64,000 nt of DNA, taken from Escherichia coli. Lineage in GTDB: Bacteria > Pseudomonadota > Gammaproteobacteria > Enterobacterales > Enterobacteriaceae. The stretch lies in NCBI RefSeq assembly GCF_030013205.1, contig NZ_CP122648.1. The stretch is one strand, 5' to 3'. The notes beneath the pieces were generated by a model that did no database searches, had not been told where the DNA came from, and saw nothing but the letters and a program-made list of their open reading frames with translations. Shown in pieces: positions 1 to 61,646 of this stretch (its first letter is position 1; each line of letters starts with the position of its first letter). The translations under genes and the position numbers were made by a program.

Positions 1-569
1 CTGTCGGTAGCCTGACGCAGGCTGTCATCCGGGCTGGTCACGCTATACAGATATTTTTCCGGATTGGTGACGCGGTACTGCACGTTCATCTCAACGCGCA
101 CTACGTTCTCGTCCGACGTCAGCATCACACCAGAAGCGGCCAGTTCACGCACGGCTTCCACGTTCACCGGTTTGACTTCGTCGATAAACGTCGGTTTCCA
201 GTTCAGACCCGGCTCAACCAGATGGCTGAATTTACCAAAGCGTGTTACCACGCCACGTTCGGCTTCTTTAATGGTATAGAAACCACTGGCCGCCCAGATA
301 ATGACAATCGCTGCCGCTGCGATGGTAACGACACGACCGCCAAGCTGCGGGCGCGGGCCTTGCGATGAACTGCCACCGCCAGATCCGGTGCCTTTACCGC
401 CGCCCAGACCACCGAGCTTTTTGCTCAGTTTGCGGAAGATATCATCTAAATCAGGTGGCCCTTGATCGCGACCGCCTTTGTTTCCATTTCCCTCAGAGTT
501 GCCGCCAGGTTTGCTGCTTCCCCACGGGTCGCGGTCTTGTCCGTTATTACCGGGCTGATTCCACGCCAT
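1..569 (-). CDS. hflK: HflK, FtsH protease modulator (N-terminal part; gene runs off window start)
   Basis: Minus-strand ATG at 569-567; translation begins MAWNQPGNNGQDRDPWGSSKPGG with Gly/Ser-rich linker typical of HflK; sits about 85 bp downstream of hflX as in the hfq-hflX-hflK operon. Confidence 0.9.
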   Translation of the reverse strand, partial: MAWNQPGNNGQDRDPWGSSKPGGNSEGNGNKGGRDQGPPDLDDIFRKLSKKLGGLGGGKGTGSGGGSSSQGPRPQLGGRVVTIAAAAIVIIWAASGFYTIKEAERGVVTRFGKFSHLVEPGLNWKPTFIDEVKPVNVEAVRELAASGVMLTSDENVVRVEMNVQYRVTNPEKYLYSVTSPDDSLRQATD

Positions 570-653
570 GTTTGTGCTCCATATTTGTTATGCGGTGATC
601 CCTGTTGTCTTTCGACGCCAGAGGATAGACTCCACGCTTCAGACGCTACGCCG

Positions 654-1934
654 TTAGATCAAGTAATCGATCAACGCCGGTTCTTGTTTACAGAGGCGAC
701 GCCAGTCAACGATCGGCATACGAACTTGCAGACTTACGCTGCCGTCCTCCTCCATCCACTCTTTTTCTATTGCCTGAAGCTGATAAAAACGACTTCTCAG
801 ACGCCCTTCCTGCGGTGGCAGACGCAATGTATGCTGCGCCACCTCGCCGGAAAGCCGCTCCGTCAAAGCCTGAAAAAGCTGTGGTATCCCCGCTCCGGTC
901 TGTGCGGAAAGCCAGACACGGATCGGTTTGTTCTCTTCGTCCCGATCAATACGCGGTTCGAAATCTTCCAGCATATCGATCTTGTTCATCACCAGCAGGG
1001 TTGGGATCTCGTGAGCGTCGATCTCTTCAAGAACCGTATTTACCGCTTCGATGTTTTCTTGTACACGCACATCCGCCGCATCAATGACGTGCAGCAGCAA
1101 TGTGGCTTGCCGCGTCTCTTGTAACGTGGCTTTAAATGCCGCCACCAGATCGTGCGGCAGGTGGCGAATAAACCCTACGGTATCAGCCAACACGGTTTCA
1201 CCGACATCTGCGACGTCAATACGCCGCAACGTCGGGTCGAGGGTGGCAAACAACTGGTCTGCCGCGTAGACCCGCGCTTCGGTGATGCGATTGAAAAGGG
1301 TAGATTTACCGGCGTTGGTATATCCCACCAGCGAAACAGTAGGAACGTCGGCTTTGATACGCGATTGCCGCCCCTGCTCACGCTGCTTTTCAACTCTTTC
1401 CAGGCGCGACTGTATCTGCACGATGCGATTACGCAACAAACGACGGTCGGTTTCGAGCTGGGTTTCACCCGGACCACGCAAACCTATCCCGCCTTTCTGT
1501 CTTTCAAGGTGGGTCCAGCCACGCACCAGGCGCGTAGCCAGATGGCGCAGCTGCGCCAGCTCAACCTGCAACTTACCCTCATGGGTACGCGCACGTTGGG
1601 CGAAAATATCTAAAATAAGGCCGGTGCGGTCGATGACACGACACTCGCACAAACGCTCCAGGTTACGCTCTTGCGCCGGACTCAGGGCATGGTCAAAAAG
1701 AACGACCGAAGCACCCGTCGCTTTGACAGCTTCCGCAATTTCAACTGCTTTACCTTCACCTACAAAATACTTTGGGTGCGGCGCTTTACGGCTACCGGTA
1801 ATCACCTGCAATGCTTCGACACCGGCGGAAGAGACCAGAGATTCAAACTCCTGGAGGTCTTCCATATCTTTGTCTTGCGTAAAATAGATGTGTACCAGTA
1901 CCGCCTGCTCACCAGCATCATAACGGTCAAACAA
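654..1934 (-). CDS. hflX: GTPase HflX
   Basis: 426-aa ORF; G1 motif [10 protein letters not shown]3 DTVGF, NKID; position between hfq and hflK. Confidence 0.95.
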
Positions 1935-2010
1935 GCGTATAACCCTCTAAATAGATCAGCGGGGAACGCAGGATCGCTGGCTCCCCGTGTAAAAAAAACA
2001 GCCCGAAACC

Positions 2011-2331
<321 letters not shown>

Positions 2332-2404
2332 TTATATGCTTATTTGTACTTTGAACCTTTCGATTCTGAAAAAATTGCGCACGATACGTCTCAATTGTAC
2401 ACAT

Positions 2405-3355
2405 TCAGCCTGCGATAGCACCAACAACCTGTAATACTTCGTCACGCGCTTGTTCTGGTTTTTCACTGTCAAGCCAGTGAACCCCTTCCCAACCACGCAG
2501 CCAGGTTATCTGCCGCTTCGCCAACTGTCTCGTGGCGCAAACACCTCGATAAACCATTTCATCGTATGAGATTTCGCCTTCAAGGTAAGACCACATCTGG
2601 CGATAACCCACGCAACGAATGGAAGGCAAGTCCGTATGCAAATCTCCTCGGGCAAAAAGCGCCCGGACTTCTGCTTCAAAACCTGAAGCCAACATCTGAT
2701 GAAAACGCTGCTCAATTCGTTGATGGAGCAGTTCACGGCTCGCCGGGGCGATGGCGAACTGATGCACCTGATACGGTAGAGCGTCTCCTGACGTTTGCGT
2801 CAGTTCCGTTAAAGTTTTACCCGAAATGAAAAAAACTTCCAGTGCCCGGGAAAGCCTTTGTGGATCATTTGGATGAATCCTTGCTGCCGCAACCGGATCG
2901 ATCTCCTGAAGTTGACGATGCAATGACTCCCAACCTTGCTCTGCCGCCTGTTGCTCAATTCTGGCCCGCACTTCCGGGTCTGCCGACGGTAGCGGCGACA
3001 ACCCTTCCAGCAATGCCTTGAAATACAACATCGTACCGCCCACTAACAGTGGGATCCGCCCCGCCGCGGTGATATCGGCCATTTCCGCCAGCGCATCGCG
3101 GCGAAAATCAGCAGCCGAGTAAGCCTGCGACGGATCGCGAATATCCAGCAATCGGTGCGGCGCGGCGAGTAACTCTTCAGCGTTCGGCTTCGCCGTCCCG
3201 ATATCCATCCCTTTGTAAATAAGGGCAGAATCAACGCTTATCAACTCTACTGGTAAAATTTTACGCAGCTCAATGGCTAACGCCGTTTTACCGGAGGCCG
3301 TCGGCCCCATCAAAAAAATCGCCTTAGGCAGGCTCGCCTTACTGATATCACTCAT
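2405..3355 (-). CDS. miaA: tRNA dimethylallyltransferase MiaA
   Basis: 316-aa ORF with P-loop GPTASGKT; overlaps 3' end of mutL by 8 nt as in the mutL-miaA-hfq operon. Confidence 0.95.
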
Positions 3356-5195
3356 CTTTCAGGGCTTTTATCGCCGGATGTAAATCAACAGATTGTAACA
3401 GACCACCCGGCGGCGTTTTCACAAGTTGCGGACATAACCGTTCCACGTCCGCTAGCAGGGTTATGGCCTGTGCCATTGACCACTGCGCATGTTCGCTCAT
3501 CAGATTTCGTGCAATCCACTGCGCAATATTGCCAGGTTCGAATACGGACTGCTTCGCCAGGTAGCCTATCAGTTCAGGAATCAAGATTTGTAAATTTTGT
3601 TGGCGTAAGGGTAAAGGCACGGCCCTGATGGTCACATGCTGTGCATCTGACTGGAAATCAATACCCAATTCCGCCAGGGCAGACTGCGCTTTTTCTAATG
3701 CCGATTTTTCTTCGCCAGAAACTTTTAGCCGCAACGGAATAAGCAACGGCTGGGCGCAAACTGGCGCTTCACCCGGCGTCAGTTGCGCCTGACGCAGCCA
3801 ACGTTCTGCCACTGGCAAGGCTAAAAGTGAAATGTTGCCGTCGCGCTCCAGCAACGCACAGTCGGAATGAACGATAGTCAGTACCCGACCAAAACTCTGA
3901 CTGTTCGCCGCAAGTGCAGGTTCCTGCGGTTCTGGCGCTTTTGGTTTTTGCATCGGCGCGGGCGTTTGCAAAAGCTGGCGATACACTTCACCTTGCTGTT
4001 TCTGGTAACCTGGCTGCGCATTCGGCCAGGGGGCAGCCGGACGACTGCCTGAGGCGGGCGCAGGAGTGTAACGCGGAGCTACTGGCTCACGAAATGCCGG
4101 TTCAGCAAAATGATTGCGCCCCGCCGCCACGCGGTTTTCCGGGATGGCGCGCGGTGCAGGTTGTGGTTCATCGTCCAGCGGTAGCGGCGTTTCCAGTTGC
4201 TGTTGTAGCACGCTCAGCACGCCCTGATAGATAAAATCATGCACCAGACGCGACTGATGGAAACGCACTTCGTGTTTGGCAGGGTGCACGTTGACGTCCA
4301 CCTGATGTGGGTCGATCTCCAGATACAGCACAAATGCCGGTTGCTGATCGGCCCCCAGTTTGTCTTCACAGGCCTGGCGGATCGCGTGATTGATCAGGCG
4401 ATCGCGCATCATGCGACCATTCACATAGCAATACTGAATTTCCGCCAGTGCGGGCGTGGTGTGATTCGGATCTGCCACCCAGCCGCGCAGCGTAAGATCG
4501 CCGTGTTGCCATTCAATCGCCAGCGCTTGTTCGAGAAAAGCGGTACCGCAAATCGCGCCTAAGCGCCGTTCTTTTTGCCCGCCTTCCGGCACTGCGCGGT
4601 ACTGACGCACAATTTTACCGTTATGCGACAGGTTGATCGTGACGTCGAAACGCGCCAGCGCAATGCGGCGGATGATCTCATCAATGTGGTTAAATTCGGT
4701 TTTCTCGGTGCGCAGGAATTTGCGCCGCGCCGGGGTGTTGTAGAACAGATCCAGCACCTCCAGCGTCGTTCCCACAGGATGCGCCGCCGGTTTTACCGTC
4801 ACGTCCATATCGCGCCCTTCGGCATAGGCCTGCCAGGCTTCCTGCTGTTCTGCGGTACGTGAAGTGAGCGTCAGGCGGGAAACCGAACTGATACTCGCCA
4901 GAGCCTCACCGCGAAAGCCCAGGCTGATAATGGCTTCGAGATCGTCCAGAGAGGCGATTTTACTGGTGGCATGACGAGCCAGCGCCAGCGCCAGCTCATC
5001 TTTTTTGATACCGCAGCCGTTATCACGAATGCGGATAAGTTTCGCCCCACCGCGTTCGATATCAATATCGATACGCGTCGCACCTGCATCGAGGCTGTTT
5101 TCCACCAGTTCTTTGACTACCGACGCAGGTCGCTCGACCACCTCACCTGCGGCAATCTGGTTCGCCAGTTGTGGCGGTAAGACCTGAATTGGCAT
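3348..5195 (-). CDS. mutL: DNA mismatch repair protein MutL
   Basis: 615 aa from second Met ([38 protein letters not shown]), GHKL ATPase motifs. Confidence 0.95.
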
Positions 5196-25199: not shown

Positions 25200-25255
25200 A
25201 GAATTGGGGCCGTCCCCGGTGAAAAGAGGCGTTTGCAGGTCGTCCTGCAAAGCTG
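25200..25255 (-). ncRNA. guanidine-II riboswitch (mini-ykkC) in gdx 5' leader
   Basis: On the gdx strand: UGCAGG-ACGA-CCUGCA and GGGG-ACGG-CCCC hairpins (both ACGR tetraloops) separated by a short linker, the second hairpin about 10 nt upstream of the SD. Confidence 0.78.
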
Positions 25256-39120: not shown

Positions 39121-39196
39121 GCCCGGATAGCTCAGTCGGTAGAGCAGGGGATTGAAAATCCCCGTGTCCTTGGTTCGATTCCGAGTCCGGGCACCA
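39121..39196 (+). tRNA. pheU: tRNA-Phe (GAA)
   Basis: GCCCGGATAGCTCAGTCGGTAGAGCAGGGGATTGAAAATCCCCGTGTCCTTGGTTCGATTCCGAGTCCGGGCACCA, 76 nt with GAA anticodon and CCA end. Confidence 0.97.
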
Positions 39197-39393: not shown

Positions 39394-40656
39394 ATGGCAC
39401 TGACTGACGCAAAAATCCGGGCTGCAAAGCCCACTGACAAGGCTTATAAACTCACTGACGGGGCCGGCATGTTCCTGCTGGTTCATCCTAATGGTTCCCG
39501 TTACTGGCGTCTCCGCTATCGTATTCTGGGTAAGGAGAAGACTCTGGCACTTGGTGTGTATCCAGAAGTTTCTCTCTCCGAAGCTCGTACAAAACGGGAT
39601 GAGGCCCGAAAACTGATTTCAGAGGGGATTGACCCTTGCGAACAGAAAAGAGCTAAAAAAGTTGTCCCTGATTTACAGCTCTCTTTTGAACATATTGCAC
39701 GACGCTGGCATGCCAGTAATAAACAATGGGCACAATCACACAGCGATAAAGTACTCAAAAGCCTCGAGACACACGTTTTCCCCTTTATCGGCAACCGGGA
39801 TATCACAACACTCAGTACCCCGGACCTGCTTATCCCTGTTCGTGCTGCAGAAGCTAAACAAATTTATGAAATCGCCAGTCGTCTGCAGCAAAGAATATCT
39901 GCTGTAATGCGTTATGCCGTACAGTCTGGCATCATCAGATATAACCCGGCTCTGGATATGGCTGGTGCATTGACCACGGTAAAACGCCAGCATCGCCCTG
40001 CACTGGATCTTTCACGCCTGCCTGAACTTCTGTCGCGTATTGACGGTTATAAAGGCCAGCCTGTCACCCGACTGGCAGTTATGCTGAATTTACTGGTTTT
40101 TATTCGTTCCAGTGAACTCAGATACGCCCGCTGGTCTGAAATTGATATTGACAATGCCATGTGGACTATTCCAGCCGAACGCGAACCTCTGCCTGGCGTA
40201 AAATTCTCACACCGGGGCTCCAAGATGCGAACACCACATCTTGTGCCACTCAGCAAACAGGCTGTAGCCATACTGGCAGAACTACAGACATGGGCTGGTG
40301 AAAATGGTCTGATCTTTACGGGAGCACATGACCCGCATAAACCAATCAGTGAAAATACTGTAAATAAAGCCCTGAGGGTGATGGGGTATGACACAACCCA
40401 GGATGTCTGTGGCCATGGATTCCGTGCGATGGCATGTAGTGCGCTGATCGAATCAGGTTTGTGGTCCCGCGATGCTGTTGAACGTCAGATGAGCCATCAG
40501 GAACGTAACGGTGTACGCGCTGCGTATATCCATAAAGCCGAACATCTGGAAGAACGCCGGCTGATGCTACAGTGGTGGGCAGATTTTCTGAATGCGAACA
40601 GAGAGAAATGTATCAGTCCGTTTGATTATGCAAAGATCAACAATCCATTAAAATAG
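39394..40656 (+). CDS. P4-type tyrosine integrase
   Basis: 420-aa ORF MALTDAKIRAAKPTDKAYKLTDGAGMFLLVHPNGSRYWRLRYR with C-terminal catalytic region (HGFRAMA, Y in RAAYIH); 200 bp downstream of a tRNA gene; SD GAAGG. Confidence 0.92.
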   Translation: MALTDAKIRAAKPTDKAYKLTDGAGMFLLVHPNGSRYWRLRYRILGKEKTLALGVYPEVSLSEARTKRDEARKLISEGIDPCEQKRAKKVVPDLQLSFEHIARRWHASNKQWAQSHSDKVLKSLETHVFPFIGNRDITTLSTPDLLIPVRAAEAKQIYEIASRLQQRISAVMRYAVQSGIIRYNPALDMAGALTTVKRQHRPALDLSRLPELLSRIDGYKGQPVTRLAVMLNLLVFIRSSELRYARWSEIDIDNAMWTIPAEREPLPGVKFSHRGSKMRTPHLVPLSKQAVAILAELQTWAGENGLIFTGAHDPHKPISENTVNKALRVMGYDTTQDVCGHGFRAMACSALIESGLWSRDAVERQMSHQERNGVRAAYIHKAEHLEERRLMLQWWADFLNANREKCISPFDYAKINNPLK

Positions 40657-42385: not shown

Positions 42386-43714
42386 ATGAGCCACAGGGAA
42401 TTGTTCAGCGAATTTCTTGAAAATTTGAATCTTGACCTCAAACAGGCAAAAAAGATCAGCTATCACTATCGAAAAATAACCAAGTCATTAAATCTTGCGT
42501 TCAGAGGAACGAGTTCCCGGGTAGCAAACCGCTTGAAAGTGGGGTCAGTAGGCAGACATACCGCAATAAAAGGCATATCCGATCTGGATATGCTTTATAT
42601 TATGCCCCCCAATCAGTATGAATATTATAACCGTAAGGATAATGGTCAGTCTGCATTGCTTACAGATGTCAGAAACATTCTGGCGGAAGAATATCCTGAC
42701 CAGACTGTGAAAAAGGACAGACTGGTTGTTCAGATCATCTTTAAAAACTTTTATGTCGAGGTTCAACCTGTATTCAGACAGGATGATGACAGCTTTAAAT
42801 TCCCTGAAAGCTATAATGGAGGAGCATGGCGCATTACAAAACCTCTTCACGAAAAGGCGGCCATGACCGCATTTTCGCGAGATAAATCCAATAATCTGCG
42901 CAAGCTGTGTAAAATGATCAGAGCCTGGAAGAACCTGCATGGCGTCAATATGGGTGGCTTACTGATAGACACACTAGCGTATCGCTTTCTTTCATCAACA
43001 TCAGATTATGACAATACCGGAAATGGCAGCCTGGGAGCCCTCGCCAGAGACTTTTTTGAATATCTGTCAAATGAGGAGAGAAAGGAAAGGTATCTCGCGT
43101 TAGGCAGTAATCAGCATGTACGTGTTAAATCTCCCTGGTTTGGCCGGGCAGCGAAACACGCGTATGAATTATGTTGTGATGCCTTAGACGCTGAGGGGGC
43201 TGCCAGTGAAAATGACCGCTGGCGCAAAGTGTTCGGACGAGCCTTCCCCAGACGTAAAGTGGGTATTATGGAAGCCCGTCTTGGTCTGGAATCGCATGCG
43301 GCAGATGCTGTTCCCTGGACCGATACCGAAGAGTTTATAGAGGATAAATATCCGGTGGATATCAGGTACTCACTCAACCTTGACTGTACCGTAACCCAGG
43401 ATGGTTTCCCTCCCAGAAGCCTGAGGGAGATGCTTACCAGAAGATTCCGCCTCTCCGCTCGAAAATCTCTCCTTTTCCGGGCAGACTTGACAGAAATGGA
43501 GGCAGAGGAACCCTACACCGTTATGTGGAAGGTACTGAACGTGGGTGACGAAGCACGCAGAAGAAATATGATCCGGGGACAAATCGTTTCGGACGGCGGC
43601 TACTGTACGAAGAAAGAAACTACCGACTTCCGCGGAGATCACATGGTAGAATGCTATGTGATAAAAAATGAGGTTGTGGTTGCCCGGGCCCAGATTGAAG
43701 TTCCCATAAGCTGA
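42386..43714 (+). CDS. polymerase-beta-superfamily nucleotidyltransferase, SMODS/CD-NTase-like (candidate signalling nucleotide or oligonucleotide synthase)
   Basis: 442-aa ORF with SD AAAGGAA; NTase signature G-S-x10-D-L-D (GSVGRHTAIKGISDLD) near the N-terminus; stop overlaps the SD of the next gene. Confidence 0.6.
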   Translation: MSHRELFSEFLENLNLDLKQAKKISYHYRKITKSLNLAFRGTSSRVANRLKVGSVGRHTAIKGISDLDMLYIMPPNQYEYYNRKDNGQSALLTDVRNILAEEYPDQTVKKDRLVVQIIFKNFYVEVQPVFRQDDDSFKFPESYNGGAWRITKPLHEKAAMTAFSRDKSNNLRKLCKMIRAWKNLHGVNMGGLLIDTLAYRFLSSTSDYDNTGNGSLGALARDFFEYLSNEERKERYLALGSNQHVRVKSPWFGRAAKHAYELCCDALDAEGAASENDRWRKVFGRAFPRRKVGIMEARLGLESHAADAVPWTDTEEFIEDKYPVDIRYSLNLDCTVTQDGFPPRSLREMLTRRFRLSARKSLLFRADLTEMEAEEPYTVMWKVLNVGDEARRRNMIRGQIVSDGGYCTKKETTDFRGDHMVECYVIKNEVVVARAQIEVPIS

Positions 43715-43721
43715 GGTTTTT

Positions 43722-44297
43722 ATGACGCAATCAGAGATGCTGAAATTAATCGCCCGACATGGTTATAACGTTGGATTTGGCGCTAAGAAAAACTTTGCCA
43801 CCTATGATCTGATTTGTAAGGCATCCGGTTGGATTAGCTTTATTTCTCTTGCTGTCGGTGTGTTCGCCCTTTTTATTCCTGAGCTGGCCACAAACGTCAT
43901 TTCCGCGATATTAATTATATTTGGTGTTGCTACAATGTACATTCAGTTTTATGACTCGGAAAAGCAGAGTTATGAAAGTGCGGGGATTGAGCAGACCAAA
44001 ATTTTTAATGAACTTGAAGTCATCTACCGCAACGTAAAAAGCGATGCAAACTTTGACTATCAGCGTACACAACAATCCATCGACGCTATCATGTCCCGGT
44101 TTTACGGCACGGTCATCAGCAAACAGATCTTCGGAAGTAACTGGTACGCACATTATAAATTTTACTGTGAATTTGAAAAAGCATGGGTTGAAGAAGAGCT
44201 GAACCTGACACTGAAGGACAAAATCCCGCTTTCGCTCTGCTTTCTCGCCGGTCTGGCGATCATTTTTACTATAGCTGTCATCTGGAAAACGCCCTGA
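43722..44297 (+). CDS. 2-TM membrane protein, SLATT-like candidate effector
   Basis: 191-aa ORF starting 8 nt after the NTase stop; two adjacent hydrophobic helices (ISFISLAVGVFALFIPELATNVISAILIIFGVATMYI) plus a C-terminal hydrophobic segment. Confidence 0.6.
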   Translation: MTQSEMLKLIARHGYNVGFGAKKNFATYDLICKASGWISFISLAVGVFALFIPELATNVISAILIIFGVATMYIQFYDSEKQSYESAGIEQTKIFNELEVIYRNVKSDANFDYQRTQQSIDAIMSRFYGTVISKQIFGSNWYAHYKFYCEFEKAWVEEELNLTLKDKIPLSLCFLAGLAIIFTIAVIWKTP

Positions 44298-44848: not shown

Positions 44849-45574
44849 TTATGATGTACATAATACCTTAAAATTATCAACTAGCTGAGCATTAACCTCC
44901 ATCTGACTAATCCCCCATAATGCGGCTAACTGTTTCTCTGCAATCCCACTATCCCATGGCATTAGTGGGTCATTACGAAACTTAGCAAATGGCCCATCTG
45001 TTTCTGTAAGAATGCGTGATTTGGGTATTTTCAAAACTAAGGCCTTACCCTTTATTGTATCGAGCATAGCAGGCCCCACTGAGAACCAGCATCCTAAATC
45101 AATTGCCCTTTCAAGCTGCTTAGGTGTTCCAGTGAACCAATGCAATATTGCCACCCCATCGATATTTTCAATCTCATCAAGCACCGCTGATGCACTTCCC
45201 CGACTATGGATAGTCATAATCTTGCCACCAGCCCGATTTACACTGTTGAGAATGTGTCGGAACACTTTCAATTGAATATCCCAATGTTCTTTAAATCCCT
45301 GTCCACCATCAAGCCCTATTTCCCCTACATACTTAGTTTCCGAAAGCAATGAATCAAACAGGTCTAACTCATGCGATCTTTGATGCGCGATTTGAGGATG
45401 TAGCCCAAGAGCAGTTCGGATTCGTTGACTTTCTTTAGCCAATAAAGAAGTACCATGCCATGCTTTAGGTGTTGTTGTCACCGACAGAATATAAGTCCCT
45501 CGACGTTTACTTTCTTCAGCCACGAGGTCTGGCCGAGGATATAAGTCTAGATGACAGTGCATATCGATGCTCAT
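44849..45574 (-). CDS. qatD: QatD-like TatD-family metal-dependent hydrolase
   Basis: 241-aa ORF beginning MSIDMHCHLDLYP (TatD HxH motif); ATGA overlap with upstream qatC. Confidence 0.8.
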   Translation of the reverse strand: MSIDMHCHLDLYPRPDLVAEESKRRGTYILSVTTTPKAWHGTSLLAKESQRIRTALGLHPQIAHQRSHELDLFDSLLSETKYVGEIGLDGGQGFKEHWDIQLKVFRHILNSVNRAGGKIMTIHSRGSASAVLDEIENIDGVAILHWFTGTPKQLERAIDLGCWFSVGPAMLDTIKGKALVLKIPKSRILTETDGPFAKFRNDPLMPWDSGIAEKQLAALWGISQMEVNAQLVDNFKVLCTS

Positions 45575-46890
45575 ACTATGTTCTCACTCAGTAAATAGCT
45601 TTCAACCTCATCCAGGCCATCCTTAAATACTTGCTTGAAATTATCAAATTCTGCCGTAGGCAAAGGGCCACTTTTGGCAATCCATGTACCTATTTTCAAA
45701 GTCGATTTCTGCGTGATCGCAATCCTAAGGGCGATCAGGTCGTCCCTGCGATCTATTTCATTCATTACTTTAGCTAAGGACTGGAAAATATATTCAACAT
45801 CTCTACTAATTCCCCCTGCATGAAGTGATGCTCGTCGAATGATACACGGTATACATACCCCACATTGCTGCCCCATTCGTTTCCAATGACTGCAGGATAC
45901 TGTACTTTCCACAATTTTAGATAAGAGCTGCTTATTTGAACATTCGGAGATCATTTTTCCTTTTGTCTTAAACTGATATGGATTGATTATTTGACAAGAA
46001 ATACCGAGCGCATCAAAGATCTTTTGTATGCTCGTAATAAAATGTGGATGTGTTGTTCGTGTGCTCAGCGAACCTATCCGCCGTGGAGTAAGTGGTGCAT
46101 TTAATGAGATAAATCCATTTTCAGGTACGAACAAATCAATCTTTTCTTGTTGAGATATCTCTTGTACGGCACAAGCACCTACGGCCGCAAAGGCAAGAAA
46201 ATTGAGGCTACGAGTTCGCATCGTAATATCAGTCACGCCTTGATAAATGTGTGGGTCAGCATTAATCTCAAAGCGCGAAAATTGGCCACTTAATTTTTCA
46301 GCAATCTGATCTTGACGAGACTTATCCCCCTTATAAGCATGACTAACCAAAAGTGGAGCGCGCCCTGCAGCCAGAAGATCTATTGCACCAATAGCTGAAT
46401 CCAGACCTCCTGAAAATAGGCTGACACAGTCAAGCCCTTTTAGCTTAATCAGACGATGCCTTGAATGCTGGCTATAAGGCTCTGGCGGTGCATAACCATC
46501 GTCACAAAATTCGAAATCCCAGATGTCTCCACTAAGAAAATGCAAAGCACTCTCAAGTTCTTTCTTTAGACTAATCCATCTGGATGGTTCATGAAGGGGG
46601 AGTCGTAACGACAATTGGCGGGTCCAACCATCCTCGGAACTTTCACGCTGAACGAAAGTATCTGCTGCAGTTACTGCTAATGCAACACTCAGAAAATCCA
46701 TGACCTTAGCTGGAAGCTGTACTCCCAAACGTCTGATCCGATCAATCGCAGGATTCCCGATAACAGATATATCTCCGCGCCTCTGACCACTTAATCCATA
46801 TAGCTGAACAGGTAACACTTTCTCACTTGCTGGCGGCAAATGGTGATGTTTATGATGGAAAACTAATTGTGTCACTGGTATGCCTCCCAT
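45571..46890 (-). CDS. qatC: QatC-like QueC-family PP-loop ATPase
   Basis: 439-aa ORF with PP-loop SGGLDS (DCVSLFSGGLDSAIGAIDLL); overlaps qatB by 19 nt. Confidence 0.8.
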   Translation of the reverse strand: MGGIPVTQLVFHHKHHHLPPASEKVLPVQLYGLSGQRRGDISVIGNPAIDRIRRLGVQLPAKVMDFLSVALAVTAADTFVQRESSEDGWTRQLSLRLPLHEPSRWISLKKELESALHFLSGDIWDFEFCDDGYAPPEPYSQHSRHRLIKLKGLDCVSLFSGGLDSAIGAIDLLAAGRAPLLVSHAYKGDKSRQDQIAEKLSGQFSRFEINADPHIYQGVTDITMRTRSLNFLAFAAVGACAVQEISQQEKIDLFVPENGFISLNAPLTPRRIGSLSTRTTHPHFITSIQKIFDALGISCQIINPYQFKTKGKMISECSNKQLLSKIVESTVSCSHWKRMGQQCGVCIPCIIRRASLHAGGISRDVEYIFQSLAKVMNEIDRRDDLIALRIAITQKSTLKIGTWIAKSGPLPTAEFDNFKQVFKDGLDEVESYLLSENIV

Positions 46891-47624
46891 TCTTGCCAGG
46901 CCTCAATAATGGCCTGACGTTCAATTTTTACCATTTGGTTTCGTGTGAACGATCTTATGTTACCGGCAAGTTTTGGTGCCATATGTTTATCAACAACAAC
47001 TTTAATCAATTCCCGGAGTTCAATTTCTGCATGAATTGCCTTTGAAGGTGTATCTGCTTTGTTCCATGCCCTATTAGAATCCATTACCATCTGAAGGAAA
47101 ATACTTTCCGCTAGATAACCAATCATTGTGTCAACAATCACACCATCAGTTATTTTTTGAGGATCGAAAATTTCTACGCCATCAAGAGCCTCCACTAAAG
47201 CATGGTTCATGGCCGCACAGATCTTTTCTGAGTCACCATCCTGTGATGTTAAAGCTTGAGCAATAGTTGATATTGCTATTTCGCATGGAAGGCCTGCCAA
47301 ACTGCCCAAATCGATGCTTGGTTCTCCGGGAGCCGAAGGCATTCCCACTAAAGCCCCAAATAATTCGGCCCCAGCTTGCGTGACACTCCCTAATCGCCGA
47401 GCAGCGTTACTGCTCCCTCCGGAGGCTTTTCGCGCGTAGTGCCCTATGGCTTTTCTGAAATCTGCTCGATTTCCATTTGATACCGCATTTCCCAACGATT
47501 CTCGAAATGGCGCAAACCTCCTTTCTTGCGGCGAGGGTAACGGTTGCTGTGGCTGATCATCAGCCCATGGTGGAACCAGCGGAGAGCCACCTCCTGGACC
47601 TTTACTTGATTGTGATGTTCCCAT
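46872..47624 (-). CDS. qatB: QatB-like protein (no recognisable domain)
   Basis: 250-aa ORF whose ATG overlaps the qatA stop (TAATG); position between KAP NTPase and QueC-like genes. Confidence 0.7.
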   Translation of the reverse strand: MGTSQSSKGPGGGSPLVPPWADDQPQQPLPSPQERRFAPFRESLGNAVSNGNRADFRKAIGHYARKASGGSSNAARRLGSVTQAGAELFGALVGMPSAPGEPSIDLGSLAGLPCEIAISTIAQALTSQDGDSEKICAAMNHALVEALDGVEIFDPQKITDGVIVDTMIGYLAESIFLQMVMDSNRAWNKADTPSKAIHAEIELRELIKVVVDKHMAPKLAGNIRSFTRNQMVKIERQAIIEAWQEWEAYQ

Positions 47625-49408
47625 TAAGCGTCCTTATTCCATTGTTCATCTTTTAATGCTGCAGTCATCCACGCTGGTCGTTTCATCCCCAACTGTAATT
47701 CCTGTAGATAACGAATTAATATGCTGGCTGCATCTGTTGAGTAGCGGGCCAACAGACATGCGCCGGAAAAGCCTCTGGGCTTACGATCCCAATCTGATAC
47801 CTGCCGTAACTGGTTAATTAAACCTTCCATTACAGGTATTTGCTCCTCACGAGGAAGTGCTTTCAAAAGGTTTTCTGCTGTAGGAGAACTAGTGTTTTTC
47901 AATTCAATTAGTGCATTTAGTACTTCCCGTCCAGATGGCGATAAACCAACCACATATGCACCTATTGGCATAGTTTCTCGGGACAGATATATGGCGGCCC
48001 TTAAGTCAATCCCACCAAGACGAGGTTCAAGTTGGGCCCATTGACTGATGAAAGATTTAGTCGTTGGACTATCAGTCCATGTCTTTGGTGCATCAGTAGG
48101 TATTTGACCGCCATTATCGTCAAGCTGTTTAAGTATCTGGGGAACACCTTGTTCAATATCCACGAGATGATATAAATCAGCGGTGCCATCCACTCCAACA
48201 CAGCGTTCAAAAATTACTAGCTTAGTAATAATTGCTTCATCCAAAGGCATTGCTCGTCGCTTCGCAATTTGAGATCGCATTTTCACAACATTCAACAAGC
48301 GTTTAACGATCCTGGGATTACCATGAATAATTGGAGAGTTGGCTAAAATGGGAGCAATACGGTCAGCACGCGCAAACGCCAGCGCGAGGTTGCTATCATC
48401 CGCTTCACCAGTCATTTTTAAGGCCTCCTGACGTGAGATTGGTTCATCTTTCCAGGATTGCTGTAACGCCTTCTCTAAGCCCTCACGGAGCATAGTTATT
48501 TTTTCGCCTTCTAAGCCATGTTCAATGGCATAAAGCATGAACAGATACGAACGGATCTCACGGACCCCAGCCTTAGGCACCCGAATAGGAACCTGGATTA
48601 GCTTATCCAGATAATCTATTTGATGGCGCTGTGATGCCCCTTTGAAGTAATCAGCCACAGAAGAGCGAATCATGTCCTCATCTGCTGCAATAATAAAGGC
48701 TGTATTAGTCAAGAAAAGGAATAGCCTGATAGCTTCAAGTGTATGGATAGCATTGGCAGGGAGACAGCGGTCTAGGTTATCTATTACCACAATGAGTGGC
48801 TTTCCAAGTTCTTCTAGAATTTCCCCATATTCCTTACGAAAGGCATCAATCTGCTGAGGGGGGCTTTTTTTTGTTTGTGGTTTAATCAAACCACAAGCAG
48901 TTTCTTTACCTTCTTTAGCTATATTGCCTAAAGCCTCATACTCTTCCTGACTCTGGATGCCATCGGTGATATTTCTTAATGCACCAATCCCCCTAGAAAG
49001 CAAACCGCCAGTAGGTAATCCTGCCATTAAAGCTGTACCCTCAGCTAGTAATCCCATAGCTCTAAAACCATCAACTCGACTAAGGAGTCTCTTAGTTTTT
49101 GATATAAGGGTAGAATTACCTTCAGCAGCTTTTGTCAATTCTGTAGCGATGACTTCAAGAAGTGCGGCACGGGCGTCGTCGTACCCCTGATAGAGCCAAG
49201 AGTCAAAATTGATAACAATCCAATCTTTGTCGTCTTGCTCAAGTTTTTGCTCTATCAGTTTTAACAGAGAGGATTTACCTGCCCCCCAGTTTCCAAAAAT
49301 TCCGATAGATACTGGTAACATATCTTTCGTGGTAAGTACATCCACGGCTAACTGAGATACTTCACCAAAATTTAGGTAGTCTTCTGATGACTCTTTGTCT
49401 GACCACAT
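47624..49408 (-). CDS. qatA: QatA-like KAP-family P-loop NTPase
   Basis: 594-aa ORF with Walker A GNWGAGKSS near the N-terminus and Walker B-like VVIDNLDRC; SD AAGGA upstream of ATG at 49408. Confidence 0.8.
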   Translation of the reverse strand: MWSDKESSEDYLNFGEVSQLAVDVLTTKDMLPVSIGIFGNWGAGKSSLLKLIEQKLEQDDKDWIVINFDSWLYQGYDDARAALLEVIATELTKAAEGNSTLISKTKRLLSRVDGFRAMGLLAEGTALMAGLPTGGLLSRGIGALRNITDGIQSQEEYEALGNIAKEGKETACGLIKPQTKKSPPQQIDAFRKEYGEILEELGKPLIVVIDNLDRCLPANAIHTLEAIRLFLFLTNTAFIIAADEDMIRSSVADYFKGASQRHQIDYLDKLIQVPIRVPKAGVREIRSYLFMLYAIEHGLEGEKITMLREGLEKALQQSWKDEPISRQEALKMTGEADDSNLALAFARADRIAPILANSPIIHGNPRIVKRLLNVVKMRSQIAKRRAMPLDEAIITKLVIFERCVGVDGTADLYHLVDIEQGVPQILKQLDDNGGQIPTDAPKTWTDSPTTKSFISQWAQLEPRLGGIDLRAAIYLSRETMPIGAYVVGLSPSGREVLNALIELKNTSSPTAENLLKALPREEQIPVMEGLINQLRQVSDWDRKPRGFSGACLLARYSTDAASILIRYLQELQLGMKRPAWMTAALKDEQWNKDA

Positions 49409-52523: not shown

Positions 52524-53183
52524 TCAGAGATGGTATGCCGGTACTTTGCGGGTTGTTCCTGTCAGGTTATCGTGCACCTCCACGGTCGTGGTCACCACCG
52601 GCATTCCGGCCTTTCTCAGCCTCAGAACATCAGCCGCAATACGCTGACTGCCAAACCAGAACAGGCCGTCCAGTGCAGTCACCAGTAAACCCGCCTCCAG
52701 TGCATACTTCAGCCGTTCACGGGGCGCTTTCACTTCCCGGGCAACCTGCTGATATGGCAATGATGTGTTTTCATTCCCAACCACGCGACGAATACGGTGA
52801 GACAGATGATACCGGAATGTATCCGGCACACCAGAAAGGCTGGCCTTCAGGCTGTACACGCAACCAAACCGTTTATCGTTAAACACCACATTTTTCTGGC
52901 TGATGCCCCATTCTTCACGCAGCGCGGCAATCAGTTGTGGTGTCCGGGTAAGCAGCAAGCGAAAAGGCAGTTCAAAACTGGTGACGTAATCCACATTCAG
53001 CAGTGCAATACGCAGCCGTTCTTCTGGCCCGGCCTCTGTCTGCCGGCACTCCTCCAGAACATCCTGCCACTGCTGGCGAAGACGGGGCGATTCGCTCCGT
53101 TCTGTAAAACAGTATTTATCCGCCAGATAGTCAATTTGTGTACGCATACTGAAGAGCATTCCGTATAAAGATTCAGCTGACAA
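52524..53183 (-). CDS. hypothetical protein
   Basis: 219-aa ORF with core-like codon usage; no family recognised by eye. Confidence 0.55.
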   Translation of the reverse strand: MSAESLYGMLFSMRTQIDYLADKYCFTERSESPRLRQQWQDVLEECRQTEAGPEERLRIALLNVDYVTSFELPFRLLLTRTPQLIAALREEWGISQKNVVFNDKRFGCVYSLKASLSGVPDTFRYHLSHRIRRVVGNENTSLPYQQVAREVKAPRERLKYALEAGLLVTALDGLFWFGSQRIAADVLRLRKAGMPVVTTTVEVHDNLTGTTRKVPAYHL

Positions 53184-53456
53184 AACTTTATCAGTCCATA
53201 AGAATCAACGGAAGCACCGATGGTTCACTTGGTCATCGCCAAGTTTTGCCATAACCGGTAGCAATGATCATTCTGTGTAACTATTTGGCCCACAGATGAT
53301 GATGTTTATCGATGTCTCCTCTGTCTGAATGTCGCATAAAGAGGATCATCAGCAGACACAGCCAGTGAACCACCGTCCGCGGAACAAAGCGCCGGACCAC
53401 ATCCGGATCCGGCAGGGACATGACTGGCATGATCAAGTAATTATGTCGCATCTCCC

Positions 53457-53870
53457 TCACTCCTGGTCCCGGAGCAAATCTGGCTGGTATCTGTAAACAT
53501 ACTTCGTACATGCCGCTCTGCAATAAATCCCCGTATCACAGGTTTCACAGAACTTCTTCCCATGAAAAAGCCTCTCGCACATCACGCAATGCCACTCCAG
53601 CACGACAGGTAATGGCGATAAAAACATCGCCATATCATCAATGTAAGGATGGGATTTTTCCGGATTCAGCACCACGCAGGCCGCCTTCTGTTGCGCGCTC
53701 AGGGCATGTAAATCATGCTCAAACCACGCCCCCTGAGCATCTGTCTGCAAAATCAACCGGCCACGACAGGAAAGGCAGAAACACTGCCGGATATTTCTGC
53801 TGAGCGCAGAGTTGGCACTGATAATGTGCTCACCCGGCGTGATCCCCAGCCCCATTTTTATGCCGTTCAT
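53457..53870 (-). CDS. hypothetical cysteine-rich (zinc-ribbon-like) protein
   Basis: 137-aa ORF with CxxC pairs (CFCLSC, CVMCERL, CETCDTGIYCRAAC); ATGA-type 4-nt overlap with upstream gene. Confidence 0.5.
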   Translation of the reverse strand: MNGIKMGLGITPGEHIISANSALSRNIRQCFCLSCRGRLILQTDAQGAWFEHDLHALSAQQKAACVVLNPEKSHPYIDDMAMFLSPLPVVLEWHCVMCERLFHGKKFCETCDTGIYCRAACTKYVYRYQPDLLRDQE

Positions 53871-54256
53871 CCTGCTACCACCTCCTCACTGAAGCGCCCG
53901 GTCTGGCAGTGTGTGCAGTACTGCTCCCCATAATAATCGTGGTGACATTGTCTGCAGTACCAGCTGGCTTTACGTACTACGGGTAAGGCATCCGGTACGA
54001 ATTGCTGCAGACGTTTAATCAAACGTATTTCTCTGCGTTCCGGTCTGACATAAGGGCACTCATGACCGTGCTCAGTCAGCCCATCGTCAGTGTGTTCAAA
54101 CCAGGGACGTTCAGTGTCGTATTGCGGGTGGTATCTGAGTGCACTGCCACAAAGATGACAGGTATAACGATCATATGGCGCAGTCTGTGCGGTACGGGCA
54201 CCGGTCAGACGTCCGTTGCCATCAAATGCGAGAAAAGATTTTGCGTACATAGTCAT
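53867..54256 (-). CDS. hypothetical cysteine/histidine-rich (zinc-ribbon-like) protein
   Basis: 129-aa ORF with CHLCGS, HECPY, CRQCHHDYYGEQYCTHCQTG motifs. Confidence 0.5.
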   Translation of the reverse strand: MTMYAKSFLAFDGNGRLTGARTAQTAPYDRYTCHLCGSALRYHPQYDTERPWFEHTDDGLTEHGHECPYVRPERREIRLIKRLQQFVPDALPVVRKASWYCRQCHHDYYGEQYCTHCQTGRFSEEVVAG

Positions 54257-54509
54257 ATTCCTCAGCCGCCAGACGACACGCAGGCAACAGCCGTCCCGGT
54301 ACGGGCAGCGTGGTCAGGGTGTGAATGGCGGTTCAGTTAAAATCTGGACTGGAGTTTGGGTAAAGCAGGCTGGTTGCTGTTACAGCACTGTGGTTGTCAC
54401 ACAATGGAACACTGACGTAAAAAACAGTCCGTGGGCGAGTGGATACATCGTTGCTGCCAGACAACAACCCATACTTTTGGTTTGCCGGGTATTGGCGCGC
54501 CAGTCGTGC

Positions 54510-55079
54510 TCAACTCCGGCTACAGCCAAAATTACGCTCACCGGTACCGTTGACTTTGGTGTACTCTTTCGCGAGATAGTCAGCACGGTTCAGCATATCC
54601 CGTAAACCAGCATCATCATCGCGTTCCAGCCACACCACCGGCCTGGCCGGAAAATGCACCAGCGTGGCATAGCATCCGGCATCCACCCCCAGGGCACTGC
54701 ACCACGCCTGTTTAATCATCCCGGCCAGTGACCCCGGATCGCGGTAATCGCCCGCACCACACCAGGTATCACGGTTGACCAGCAGTATCAGGTGATAGTG
54801 TTTTTTACCCCTGAGCACCCCGAATTCCCGGGCCCAGACGTAATGCAGCCTTGTGGTATGTACGCGTTTACCTTCACGGCGCTTACGCTTCTGGTAAGCA
54901 TCGATTCGGGCTTTCAGGGCATTGATGAAGCGGGATATCACTGCTGCGTCAGTTGCTGCCGGTACATCCGGGAGACGCAGGTCAACCCGCAATGCCGTCA
55001 GACGGGGATGAACATCAAGTGCGCGCAGCACCGTCTCACGGATACGTTGTTGCCAGAAGGGTTTGTACTCGTGTGTCAT
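54510..55079 (-). CDS. YfjJ/YagK-family (inovirus Gp2-like) protein
   Basis: 189-aa ORF; sequence and length recalled as matching the YagK/YfjJ family of CP4-type cryptic prophages. Confidence 0.7.
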   Translation of the reverse strand: MTHEYKPFWQQRIRETVLRALDVHPRLTALRVDLRLPDVPAATDAAVISRFINALKARIDAYQKRKRREGKRVHTTRLHYVWAREFGVLRGKKHYHLILLVNRDTWCGAGDYRDPGSLAGMIKQAWCSALGVDAGCYATLVHFPARPVVWLERDDDAGLRDMLNRADYLAKEYTKVNGTGERNFGCSRS

Positions 55080-55818: not shown

Positions 55819-56031
55819 TCAGGTGACATATTTCCAGACGGAAGCCGGCACGCGATCATAAAGTTTGTTCATCGTCAGTTCTGCCAGCCGGTGATCGACC
55901 GCAGAGTTGAAAGCTTCCAGCTCCGCAGGGGTAAGTTTATAACGCGTGTGGGAAATCACTTTTTCCAGTGTCTCCCGGGATGAACAACGACGGAACTGAT
56001 ACAGCCAGTCTTCTTTGGTTTTAACTTCCAT
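55819..56031 (-). CDS. hypothetical small protein
   Basis: 70-aa ORF with SD GAGAGG 3 nt upstream of ATG. Confidence 0.45.
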   Translation of the reverse strand: MEVKTKEDWLYQFRRCSSRETLEKVISHTRYKLTPAELEAFNSAVDHRLAELTMNKLYDRVPASVWKYVT

Positions 56032-56733
56032 TAGCCTCTCATTACTTTATGCTGCAATTAACGTGATACTGTCAGCATGCCGCACCAGACCGGCATTCTG
56101 GTACCCTCCCCAAACTTATTACTCCCGTGCCACCACTTAACCGGTATCTCAGACTGACACTCACCAGGTCGGATACGTTTACCGCTCAAATACACTCTGT
56201 TCACGTGTGTTGCAGGTACGTTTTATATACGCAGGTTATACGCCAGCTATCAGAGATAGCCCTGTGGGTACAACGCAATCTGTTGTTACTGCGTTCTCAT
56301 ACCCACTGATCACACTCACAGTGTTTATTTCACATATATGAACTCATGTATTTGATCTCATGTGTTTGCTCTCTCTTATATATTTAATACCAATCAGACA
56401 GTCTTATCCCATCGGTGATACCTGTCGCCTGCCCGCCGGACACGGGCTGCCCCACCGTAACCGCCCCGTAAATAACTCTGCAATTATCAGAACGACGGCT
56501 CTTCCCCTCATCCTCCCGAAAAGCATCCCTTCTCTGTCGTGCGTACGCGCGGGAAGCATCGTTTCGCGGTAGCCACCGGGTATCTCAGCATCATGCCCCC
56601 TGTTTATCTCTCGGCAGGAATATTCCCCTACTCATTTTTTACGTTTCTCCCCGGTTGTTATGCCGGTGAAGGTGGTGCGTTGTTTTTATCACCAATGCCG
56701 GTTGAGATTAACAACATCCGAAGGAACATTTTC

Positions 56734-56940
56734 ATGAATATCCCAGTTTCACTGATGGATGACCAGATGGTCGACATGGCGTTTATCACTCAACTGACCG
56801 GCTTAACCGATAAGTGGTTTTACAAGCTCATCAAGGATGGTGCCTTTCCAGCCCCCATCAAACTCGGCCGCAGCTCCCGATGGCTGAAAAGTGAAGTGGA
56901 AGCCTGGTTGCAGGCGCGTATTGCTCAGTCCCGTCCGTAA
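56734..56940 (+). CDS. AlpA-family prophage transcriptional regulator
   Basis: 68 aa from internal ATG at 56734 with SD AAGGAA; HTH region FITQLTGLTDKWFYKLIKDGAFPAPIKLGRSSRWLKSEVEAWL typical of AlpA/Xis-like regulators. Confidence 0.75.
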   Translation: MNIPVSLMDDQMVDMAFITQLTGLTDKWFYKLIKDGAFPAPIKLGRSSRWLKSEVEAWLQARIAQSRP

Positions 56941-61275: not shown

Positions 61276-61393
61276 ACAGTCTGCCAGGGAAATGCCTGAT
61301 TACATTACGTTAACCAACTGAAAACATGACACAAACACCTCATACTCCTCCTGTTTCTCTTGCATGACTGCCTCGTCATTAATAGAATAAAAC

Positions 61394-61429
61394 GATCGAT
61401 AAAACAGGTATCGATCGCCATCATCGATC
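61394..61429 (+). promoter_or_regulatory. antigen 43 phase-variation switch (three GATC Dam sites in the OxyR-binding region)
   Basis: GATC at 61394, 61413 and 61426, each within CGATCG, about 220 bp upstream of the flu start codon. Confidence 0.75.
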
Positions 61430-61646
61430 GTTTATAGTGGTTAATGACCTGCGAAAAGGCAGTTGATTCTCTTCATCATGCAGAACGGAATTGCACACAA
61501 CGGACTGATGCTTCTCTGGCGGATGAGAGAGGGGAAGCATTTATGTCCGAGAAAAACCACTTTATCTGACCATGCTGTTTTGTACCTGCCGGTATCCACA
61601 TTTGTGGGTACCGGCTTTTTTATTCACCCTCTGTAAGGAAAAGCTG

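Follow-up and report, generated by a model that had tools for sequence, protein, structure and literature searches.

In Escherichia coli, few carriers of defence and virulence cargo are as common as islands of the CP4-57/CP4-6 type, whose induction, replication and movement are poorly understood. One of the most constant features of their backbone is a pair of small genes named only 'putative zinc ribbon protein', and the question raised by the locus described here is what such a pair contributes to the island that carries it. The pair lies in a stretch of 64,000 nucleotides from E. coli (contig NZ_CP122648.1 of assembly GCF_030013205.1), the whole of which is called the window below. The upstream gene of this minus-strand pair is named zrA (product ZrA) and the downstream gene zrB (product ZrB).

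Organization of the gene pair

The pair and its immediate upstream region contain the following features.

53867..54250, minus strand: zrA, 127 amino acids, with DUF7828 (predicted CCHC, CoiA_N-like) and Zn_ribbon_11 (predicted C4) domains; the conserved first gene
53457..53870, minus strand: zrB, 137 amino acids, with the same two domains as ZrA; the variable second gene
53867..53870, minus strand: ATGA overlap, in which the ATG of zrB overlaps the TGA of zrA
54251..54345, minus strand: non-coding leader of about 95 nt, abutting zrA and including its Shine-Dalgarno sequence (consensus TAAGGAG)

A preliminary description of this DNA had reported two minus-strand open reading frames (ORFs) overlapping by 4 nt, and these were recovered at 53867..54256 and 53457..53870 with the common ATGA at 53867-53870. 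The longest zrA frame in the ORF listing, 53867..54256, encodes 129 amino acids; the probable start of ZrA is the second ATG, at 54250 (MYAKSF...), because this codon is used by PGAP and by all homologs and has a GAGG 9 nt upstream. Inside zrA, a GGAGG is placed 10 nt 5' of the zrB ATG, the same ATGA junction as in the window is present in three further loci (L034, L035, and L036), and an overlap of either ATGA or 13 nt between the two genes is found again in other genera. The pair is real, overlapping, and co-directional, and the translational coupling suggested earlier is therefore plausible, with zrB probably translated by coupling to zrA at the ATGA overlap. Over the 2.8 kb that surround the pair, the DNA is 100% identical to that of O157:H16 98-3133 and of many pig ETEC/STEC chromosomes, and the RefSeq label of both genes is the one quoted above (WP_000270991.1, WP_001013297.1). 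A search of the surroundings of the pair for repeats, promoters, and terminators gave nothing above chance.

Downstream of the pair, a 56-codon ORF (53281-53451, minus strand) starts 6 nt past the zrB stop and is preceded by AGGAG 8 nt upstream; it is a 'hypothetical protein' in RefSeq and has no family match. A terminator-like hairpin at 53390-53414 falls within this ORF, so that the ORF may instead represent the 3' end of the zrAB transcript. Next follows a gene of the ECs1377 family (52524-53183, minus strand; NCBIfam NF052300, 2.5e-98) with a weak C-terminal winged-helix match, which stands downstream of the pair in this island type, other genes being found there in other islands.

Family membership and predicted zinc sites

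It had been thought at first that no family assignment was possible, which proved too pessimistic, as both proteins score above the curated cut-offs of two Pfam families. DUF7828 (PF25165; cut-off 25.7) matches ZrA over residues 4-89 (105.2 bits, 1.4e-30) and ZrB over residues 4-85 (78 bits, 4.3e-22), and Zn_ribbon_11 (PF11682, formerly DUF3279; cut-off 24) matches ZrA over residues 96-126 (33.8 bits, 2.5e-8) and ZrB over residues 88-123 (52.6 bits, 3.5e-14). ZrA and ZrB are members of this DUF7828 and Zn_ribbon_11 family, which is already annotated and catalogued, so that their novelty is low; the two are also paralogs of each other, with 30% identity over 83 residues. NCBIfam has no family match for either protein, and no mention of the ZrA/ZrB family was found in the literature searched.

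The cysteine and histidine residues of ZrA fall into two groups (C33, C36, H55, and C67; C101, C104, C114, and C117), as do those of ZrB (C32, C35, H52, and C65; C95, C98, C108, and C111), which has C30, C117, and C121 in addition. In an alignment of 36 sequences that includes relatives down to 20-30% identity, C33, C36, F53, H55, C67, W99, and C101 (ZrA numbering) are invariant, and C104, G110, C114, C117, and G120 are at least 90% conserved. These residues are conserved family-wide, more than chance would give, and two metal sites are therefore predicted in each protein. The N-terminal site implied by the alignment is a predicted CCHC finger (CxxC ... WFEH ... C), to which the conserved His55 most plausibly contributes a zinc ligand, and the C-terminal site is a predicted C4 ribbon (WxCxxC-x9-CxxCxTG), so that both proteins are predicted to bind zinc. 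The spacing of the CxxC motifs had been likened by eye to that of zinc ribbons or fingers, in agreement with the Pfam ribbon (CxxC-x9-CxxC), the N-terminal CCHC, and the conservation of the ligands in the 36 sequences. Neither protein has an enzymatic domain in Pfam, NCBIfam, PADLOC, or PHROG, and no HNH family, as would be expected of an HNH or beta-beta-alpha-metal nuclease, occurs among the Pfam matches of ZrA, ZrB, and their relatives. The isoelectric point of ZrA and ZrB is about 7 (7.0), and that of the neighbouring Gp2-like protein is 9.8; the near-neutral value does not favour generic DNA binding by ZrA and ZrB, which according to the preliminary description may be nucleic-acid-binding regulators or effectors.

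The finger weakly resembles part of CoiA, whose N-terminal domain (CoiA_N, PF25164) has the same motif order as the Zr family, CxxCG..L ... (aromatic)F-x-H ... C. Sub-threshold CoiA_N matches were obtained for 13 of the 36 family members (best E 6.9e-5), and in the ten members inspected singly they spanned the region from CxxC to WFEH with 12-18 bits, against a cut-off of 26.3 bits; ZrA and ZrB themselves did not match CoiA_N at E <=1. CoiA has a PD-(D/E)XK nuclease domain (PMC1189080). This domain is absent from the Zr proteins, which have a length of 127-137 amino acids and carry the C4 zinc ribbon in its place, and the corresponding family (PF06054) has no match in any of the 36 members. 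CoiA is, moreover, a competence protein of Firmicutes and not an island gene. The homology to CoiA is probably a distant one, and limited to the N-terminal finger.

Predicted fold and likeness to phage activators

The metal-binding fold that the preliminary description looked for is predicted for ZrA, in accordance with the Pfam zinc ribbon. The AlphaFold2 model of ZrA, built from a 31-sequence alignment (pLDDT 88.6, pTM 0.80), is confident and compact and consists of beta-hairpins and one linker helix, with strands at residues 96-101 and 106-111, and the two family-conserved CxxC knuckles on beta-hairpins that define a C4 zinc ribbon are found in ZrA, in the model and in the 36 sequences. ZrB folds equally well in a fusion model (blocks 88-94). 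A ZrA:ZrB heterodimer was considered and is unsupported: in an AlphaFold model of the linker fusion with a partly paired alignment (pTM 0.45), the halves fold and their joint placement is not confident. The ZrA model has no neighbour among solved structures, with fold searches giving generic zinc-ribbon pieces only, and a sequence search of the PDB gave only the eL43/L37Ae and ZRANB2 ribbons, at E ~0.2. Each product would be a small, compact, non-enzymatic protein composed of a CCHC finger, a linker helix, and a C4 ribbon, with two predicted zinc sites.

P2 Ogr and P4 Delta are small zinc-finger proteins that activate the late genes of P2/P4-type elements, and Delta is a tandem duplication. 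The window resembles this arrangement by analogy only, in that tandem small zinc paralogs are present in a P4-type island. By extension, the Zr proteins might be activators that contact RNA polymerase and switch on island or helper-phage genes, a reading that seems to us quite improbable. The presence of small zinc proteins in a P4-type (CP4) island, the tandem paralogs, and a naturally occurring protein in which a partial copy is fused to a full one (P0229) are all compatible with it, and a near-neutral isoelectric point fits a protein-contact role; however, the Ogr_Delta family (PF04606) is absent from the ZrA matches at E <=10 and from the 25 commonest families across the 36 members, tblastn against 50,697 phage and satellite records found no Zr homolog, and the islands show neither a capsid module nor a late-gene module. 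The fusion protein itself (P0229, 238 amino acids) has a partial N-terminal DUF7828 copy followed by a full Zr protein.

A conserved leader upstream of zrA

The leader, with a consensus core of CCGCCATTCAC...GCTGCCCGTACCGGGACGGC...GCCTGCGTGTCGTCTGGCGG, is kept in sequence from Escherichia to Yersinia and Budvicia and is more conserved than the coding region. It is present in one copy per locus, only before ZrA-type genes, and in nearly every ZrA-bearing locus examined. A covariance model of the leader scores 76.8 bits in the window and has no match in the K-12 islands, in the single-copy Zr loci, or in L018, which does have a ZrA-type gene. It may serve in transcription, as an operator or promoter, or in translation, as a leader, or else be recognized by the neighbouring HUH protein; Rfam has no family for it. 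A drawing is possible in which a CCGCCA/UGGCGG helix, ending at the Shine-Dalgarno sequence, encloses a hairpin. The leader was nevertheless retained as a sequence-conserved element and not as a proven RNA structure: the RNAalifold consensus is weak (-4.95 kcal/mol), the minimum free energy z-score is -0.55, and covariation is modest, the helices drawn by hand showing 82.5% pairing and 5 pairs changed on both sides for a structure that was derived from the window sequence itself. In one metagenomic contig (L004, 191-773), the leader and a 20-codon zrA remnant stand directly before an intact ZrB-type gene (P0262).

Island setting and synteny

The island in the window is inserted at a tRNA-Phe gene (39121..39196), with its integrase at 39394..40656. 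On the minus strand, its backbone has the order Gp2-like gene, zrA, zrB, the 56-codon ORF, and the ECs1377-family winged-helix gene, and hha, an AlpA-like gene, and a YfjI (DUF3987) gene are found further up. Three of these genes are referred to below.

54510..55079, minus strand: Gp2-like gene of the inovirus-Gp2 / YagK-YfjJ family (PF11726, 1.8e-45; REP_ORF2-G2P, 2.7e-5)
55819..56031, minus strand: hha, between the Gp2-like block and the AlpA-like gene
56539..56940, plus strand: AlpA-like helix-turn-helix (HTH) gene, displaced and inverted in E. coli islands

The Gp2-like protein of the window has the HUH-type motifs HYH and YLAK, and the HxH and YxxK (YLAK) motifs are kept in 32 of 43 Gp2-like sequences, which is consistent with these proteins being predicted nicking enzymes of the HUH type.

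The comparison drew on 23 loci representing different GTDB species, a Klebsiella plasmid, four further variants from E. coli, and three distant relatives with a single copy; the 23 genome loci were gathered with a ZrA-only alignment and are consequently biased to ZrA-type genes. According to an iterated HMM, every locus whose upstream flank extends for at least 1 kb has a co-oriented Gp2-like gene there. This synteny spans E. coli, Salmonella, Serratia, Yersinia, Budvicia, and the Klebsiella plasmid, and it holds at 26-27% identity in L005-L007 (a protein cluster named from Proteus/Providencia) and in a metagenomic contig, which have one Zr gene each. The usual order outside E. coli, seen in most of those loci, is Gp2-like, AlpA, zrA, zrB, with AlpA directly upstream of zrA and on the same strand. 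That the spacer between the Gp2-like gene and zrA in E. coli might be a degraded alpA was rejected, as tblastn gave no match. The region 3' of zrB holds variable cargo, and a second Gp2-like gene is found downstream in 11 loci; it is a divergent copy, 3' of zrB and on the same strand, in L014, L015, L016, L019, L032, L036, L011, L013, and L024-L026. The Zr pair would thus often stand between two genes of the HUH type. On the reading favoured here, zrA and zrB would make up an operon of two genes that belongs to the conserved backbone of the CP4-57-type integrative islands in Enterobacterales, and its transcription, passing through the conserved leader, would accompany or directly follow that of the Gp2-like (HUH Rep-like) gene. 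Gp2-like genes without Zr genes are found in the K-12 yagK and yfjJ islands, and Zr genes are therefore not obligatory for a Gp2-like gene; likewise, a single Zr gene is found in the distant relatives, and the pair itself is therefore not essential to the family.

A related backbone has been described in Pseudomonas, where defence-carrying islands that are transduced by jumbo phages have a likely core of integrase (intY), alpA, and an inovirus-Gp2-like gene (bioRxiv 10.1101/2024.08.29.610337). Like them, the island in the window has an integrase by a tRNA gene, an AlpA-like gene, a Gp2-like gene, and defence cargo. The Zr genes set the two apart, being found only in Enterobacterales, and the word 'zinc' has 0 occurrences in the paper on the Pseudomonas islands (bioRxiv 10.1101/2024.08.29.610337). 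Islands related to that of the window have backbone genes of the RadC/antirestriction type. The defence cargo, as named in an identical RefSeq record, consists of genes for a nucleotide-binding-domain protein and a SLATT-domain protein (42386-44297, plus strand) and of Qat system genes with a KAP-family NTPase gene (44849-49408, minus strand).

Distribution of the family

When 1.84 billion representative proteins were searched exhaustively with a profile, only 269 matched at E <=0.001, and all named family members are from Enterobacterales and have the same uninformative name. The genera represented are Escherichia, Salmonella, Citrobacter, Klebsiella, Enterobacter, Serratia, Yersinia, Pectobacterium, Proteus, Providencia, and others. 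Among complete E. coli genomes, 3816 of 5426 (70%) have matches to the pair, at a median of 2 and up to 6 places per genome, and at least 80% of the pair is present in 1410 of the complete genomes. The K-12 islands CP4-6, CP4-57, and CP4-44 have no Zr genes, and hence there is no K-12 name for them. Zr homologs also occur in 33 plasmid records, several of which are mis-assigned chromosomes.

Two small overlapping genes on a mobile element, with many copies per genome, could also be a toxin-antitoxin-like addiction pair that stabilizes the island. This is extremely unlikely, because the Zr proteins are paralogs with the same fold, unlike known pairs, and differ from the two unrelated proteins of a type II system; neither ZrA nor ZrB matches a toxin or antitoxin family; single-gene relatives exist; and either copy has been lost by frameshift without loss of the other.

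Selection and the asymmetry between ZrA and ZrB

Among E. coli island variants, dN/dS is 0.11-0.37 for ZrA (<=0.23 in nine of ten comparisons) and, within one allelic type, 0.18-0.47 for ZrB, and zrA and zrB are real genes under purifying selection. The two differ in how far they diverge between loci, the median identity of ZrA being 62% and that of ZrB 34%; in 33 of 36 comparisons ZrA is the better conserved of the two. An allelic replacement of zrB within E. coli is seen in L037, where the ZrB-type protein (MRILNC...; 4540-4974) is about 30% identical to that of the window (53457-53870), although ZrA is 88-92% identical and the Gp2-like protein 89% identical to those of the window. The single-copy distant relatives resemble ZrB-type proteins. 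The concern voiced in the preliminary description, that the ORFs might be frameshifted or non-conserved in related islands, was justified in part: the ORFs are conserved, but ZrB is frameshifted or truncated in islands L011, L012, and L018, and there are many truncated ZrB clusters.

The many truncated or frameshifted copies, especially of ZrB (the same three islands), together with the fact that such islands are called cryptic prophages in K-12, raise the question of whether the genes are decaying selfish remnants with no present function. We regard this as very unlikely, since dN/dS is well below 1 for both zrA and zrB, the ligand residues are invariant across orders of divergence, and the synteny and the leader are kept across families of Enterobacterales.

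The allelic replacement and frequent decay of ZrB beside a constant ZrA can also be read as the trace of an arms race, in a conflict module that would serve anti-phage defence, anti-defence, or competition between islands, the zinc proteins detecting some foreign factor or blocking it. The position of the pair at the border between conserved backbone and variable cargo, which here includes Qat and other defence genes, and the presence of several copies per genome (median of 2 places, up to 6) are in keeping with this reading, which nonetheless appears unlikely. The pair has no PADLOC match and no effector or enzymatic domain, it is linked to the backbone (Gp2-like, AlpA) and not to particular cargo, and the within-type dN/dS of ZrB is <0.5 throughout, which gives no indication of positive selection within a type. 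Searches of PADLOC-DB 2.0 with ZrA, ZrB, and the Gp2-like, ECs1377-family, and small-ORF proteins returned 0 families at E <=1, and PHROG gave no match for ZrA or ZrB and only scattered weak matches among their relatives. The suggestion of a phage-defence phenotype made in the preliminary description thus found no support in PADLOC, PHROG, or phage genomes.

Proposed role of the pair

The role that we tentatively favour, while allowing it somewhat less than an even chance, is that ZrA and ZrB are non-enzymatic zinc adaptors or regulators of the Gp2-like/AlpA module of the island, produced from coupled genes under control of the leader, with ZrA constant and ZrB diversifying. The gene structure, the domains, the conserved ligand residues, the purifying selection, the synteny, the conservation of the leader, and the asymmetry between ZrA and ZrB are observations, and it is from these that we infer zinc binding, translational coupling, a partner, and a biological role. 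ZrA and ZrB would act as adaptor or regulatory factors for replication, excision, or mobilization by the Gp2/AlpA module, through binding to a particular protein partner or to a particular site on nucleic acid; ZrB, which diversifies rapidly, would confer specificity, and ZrA would stay constant. Counting against this role are the lack of support for a heterodimer, the near-neutral isoelectric points, the K-12 islands in which Gp2-like genes occur without Zr genes, the distant relatives with one Zr gene, and the frameshifted ZrB copies. For the four alternatives discussed above, positive support does not extend beyond the variability of ZrB and the island setting.

A more far-reaching version of the adaptor reading, and one with only a slim chance of being correct, is that the leader, a constant ZrA, and a swappable ZrB make up an undescribed switch for excision of CP4-57-type islands, for Gp2-like HUH replication, or for phage hitch-hiking, in which the ZrB alleles would set the signal or the co-resident island that is recognized. 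If the pair does regulate the Gp2-like/AlpA module, it would provide a direct handle on island mobility; if it does not, it is a well-catalogued pair with a domain of unknown function. As they stand, these are ordinary annotated genes, and the points possibly worth experiment are only the linkage to the Gp2-like gene, the asymmetry between ZrA and ZrB, and the conserved leader.

Other RNA matches in the window

Two matches to Rfam families were noted elsewhere in the window. A Guanidine-II riboswitch (mini-ykkC) match at 25205-25251 (minus strand, 50.4 bits) is located outside the island. An IS102 RNA match at 61392-61628 (plus strand, 68.2 bits) follows the GTPase gene of the island and, as the matching RefSeq record suggests, precedes the Ag43/Cah autotransporter gene, which is similar to the placement of isrC ahead of flu in K-12 CP4-44.
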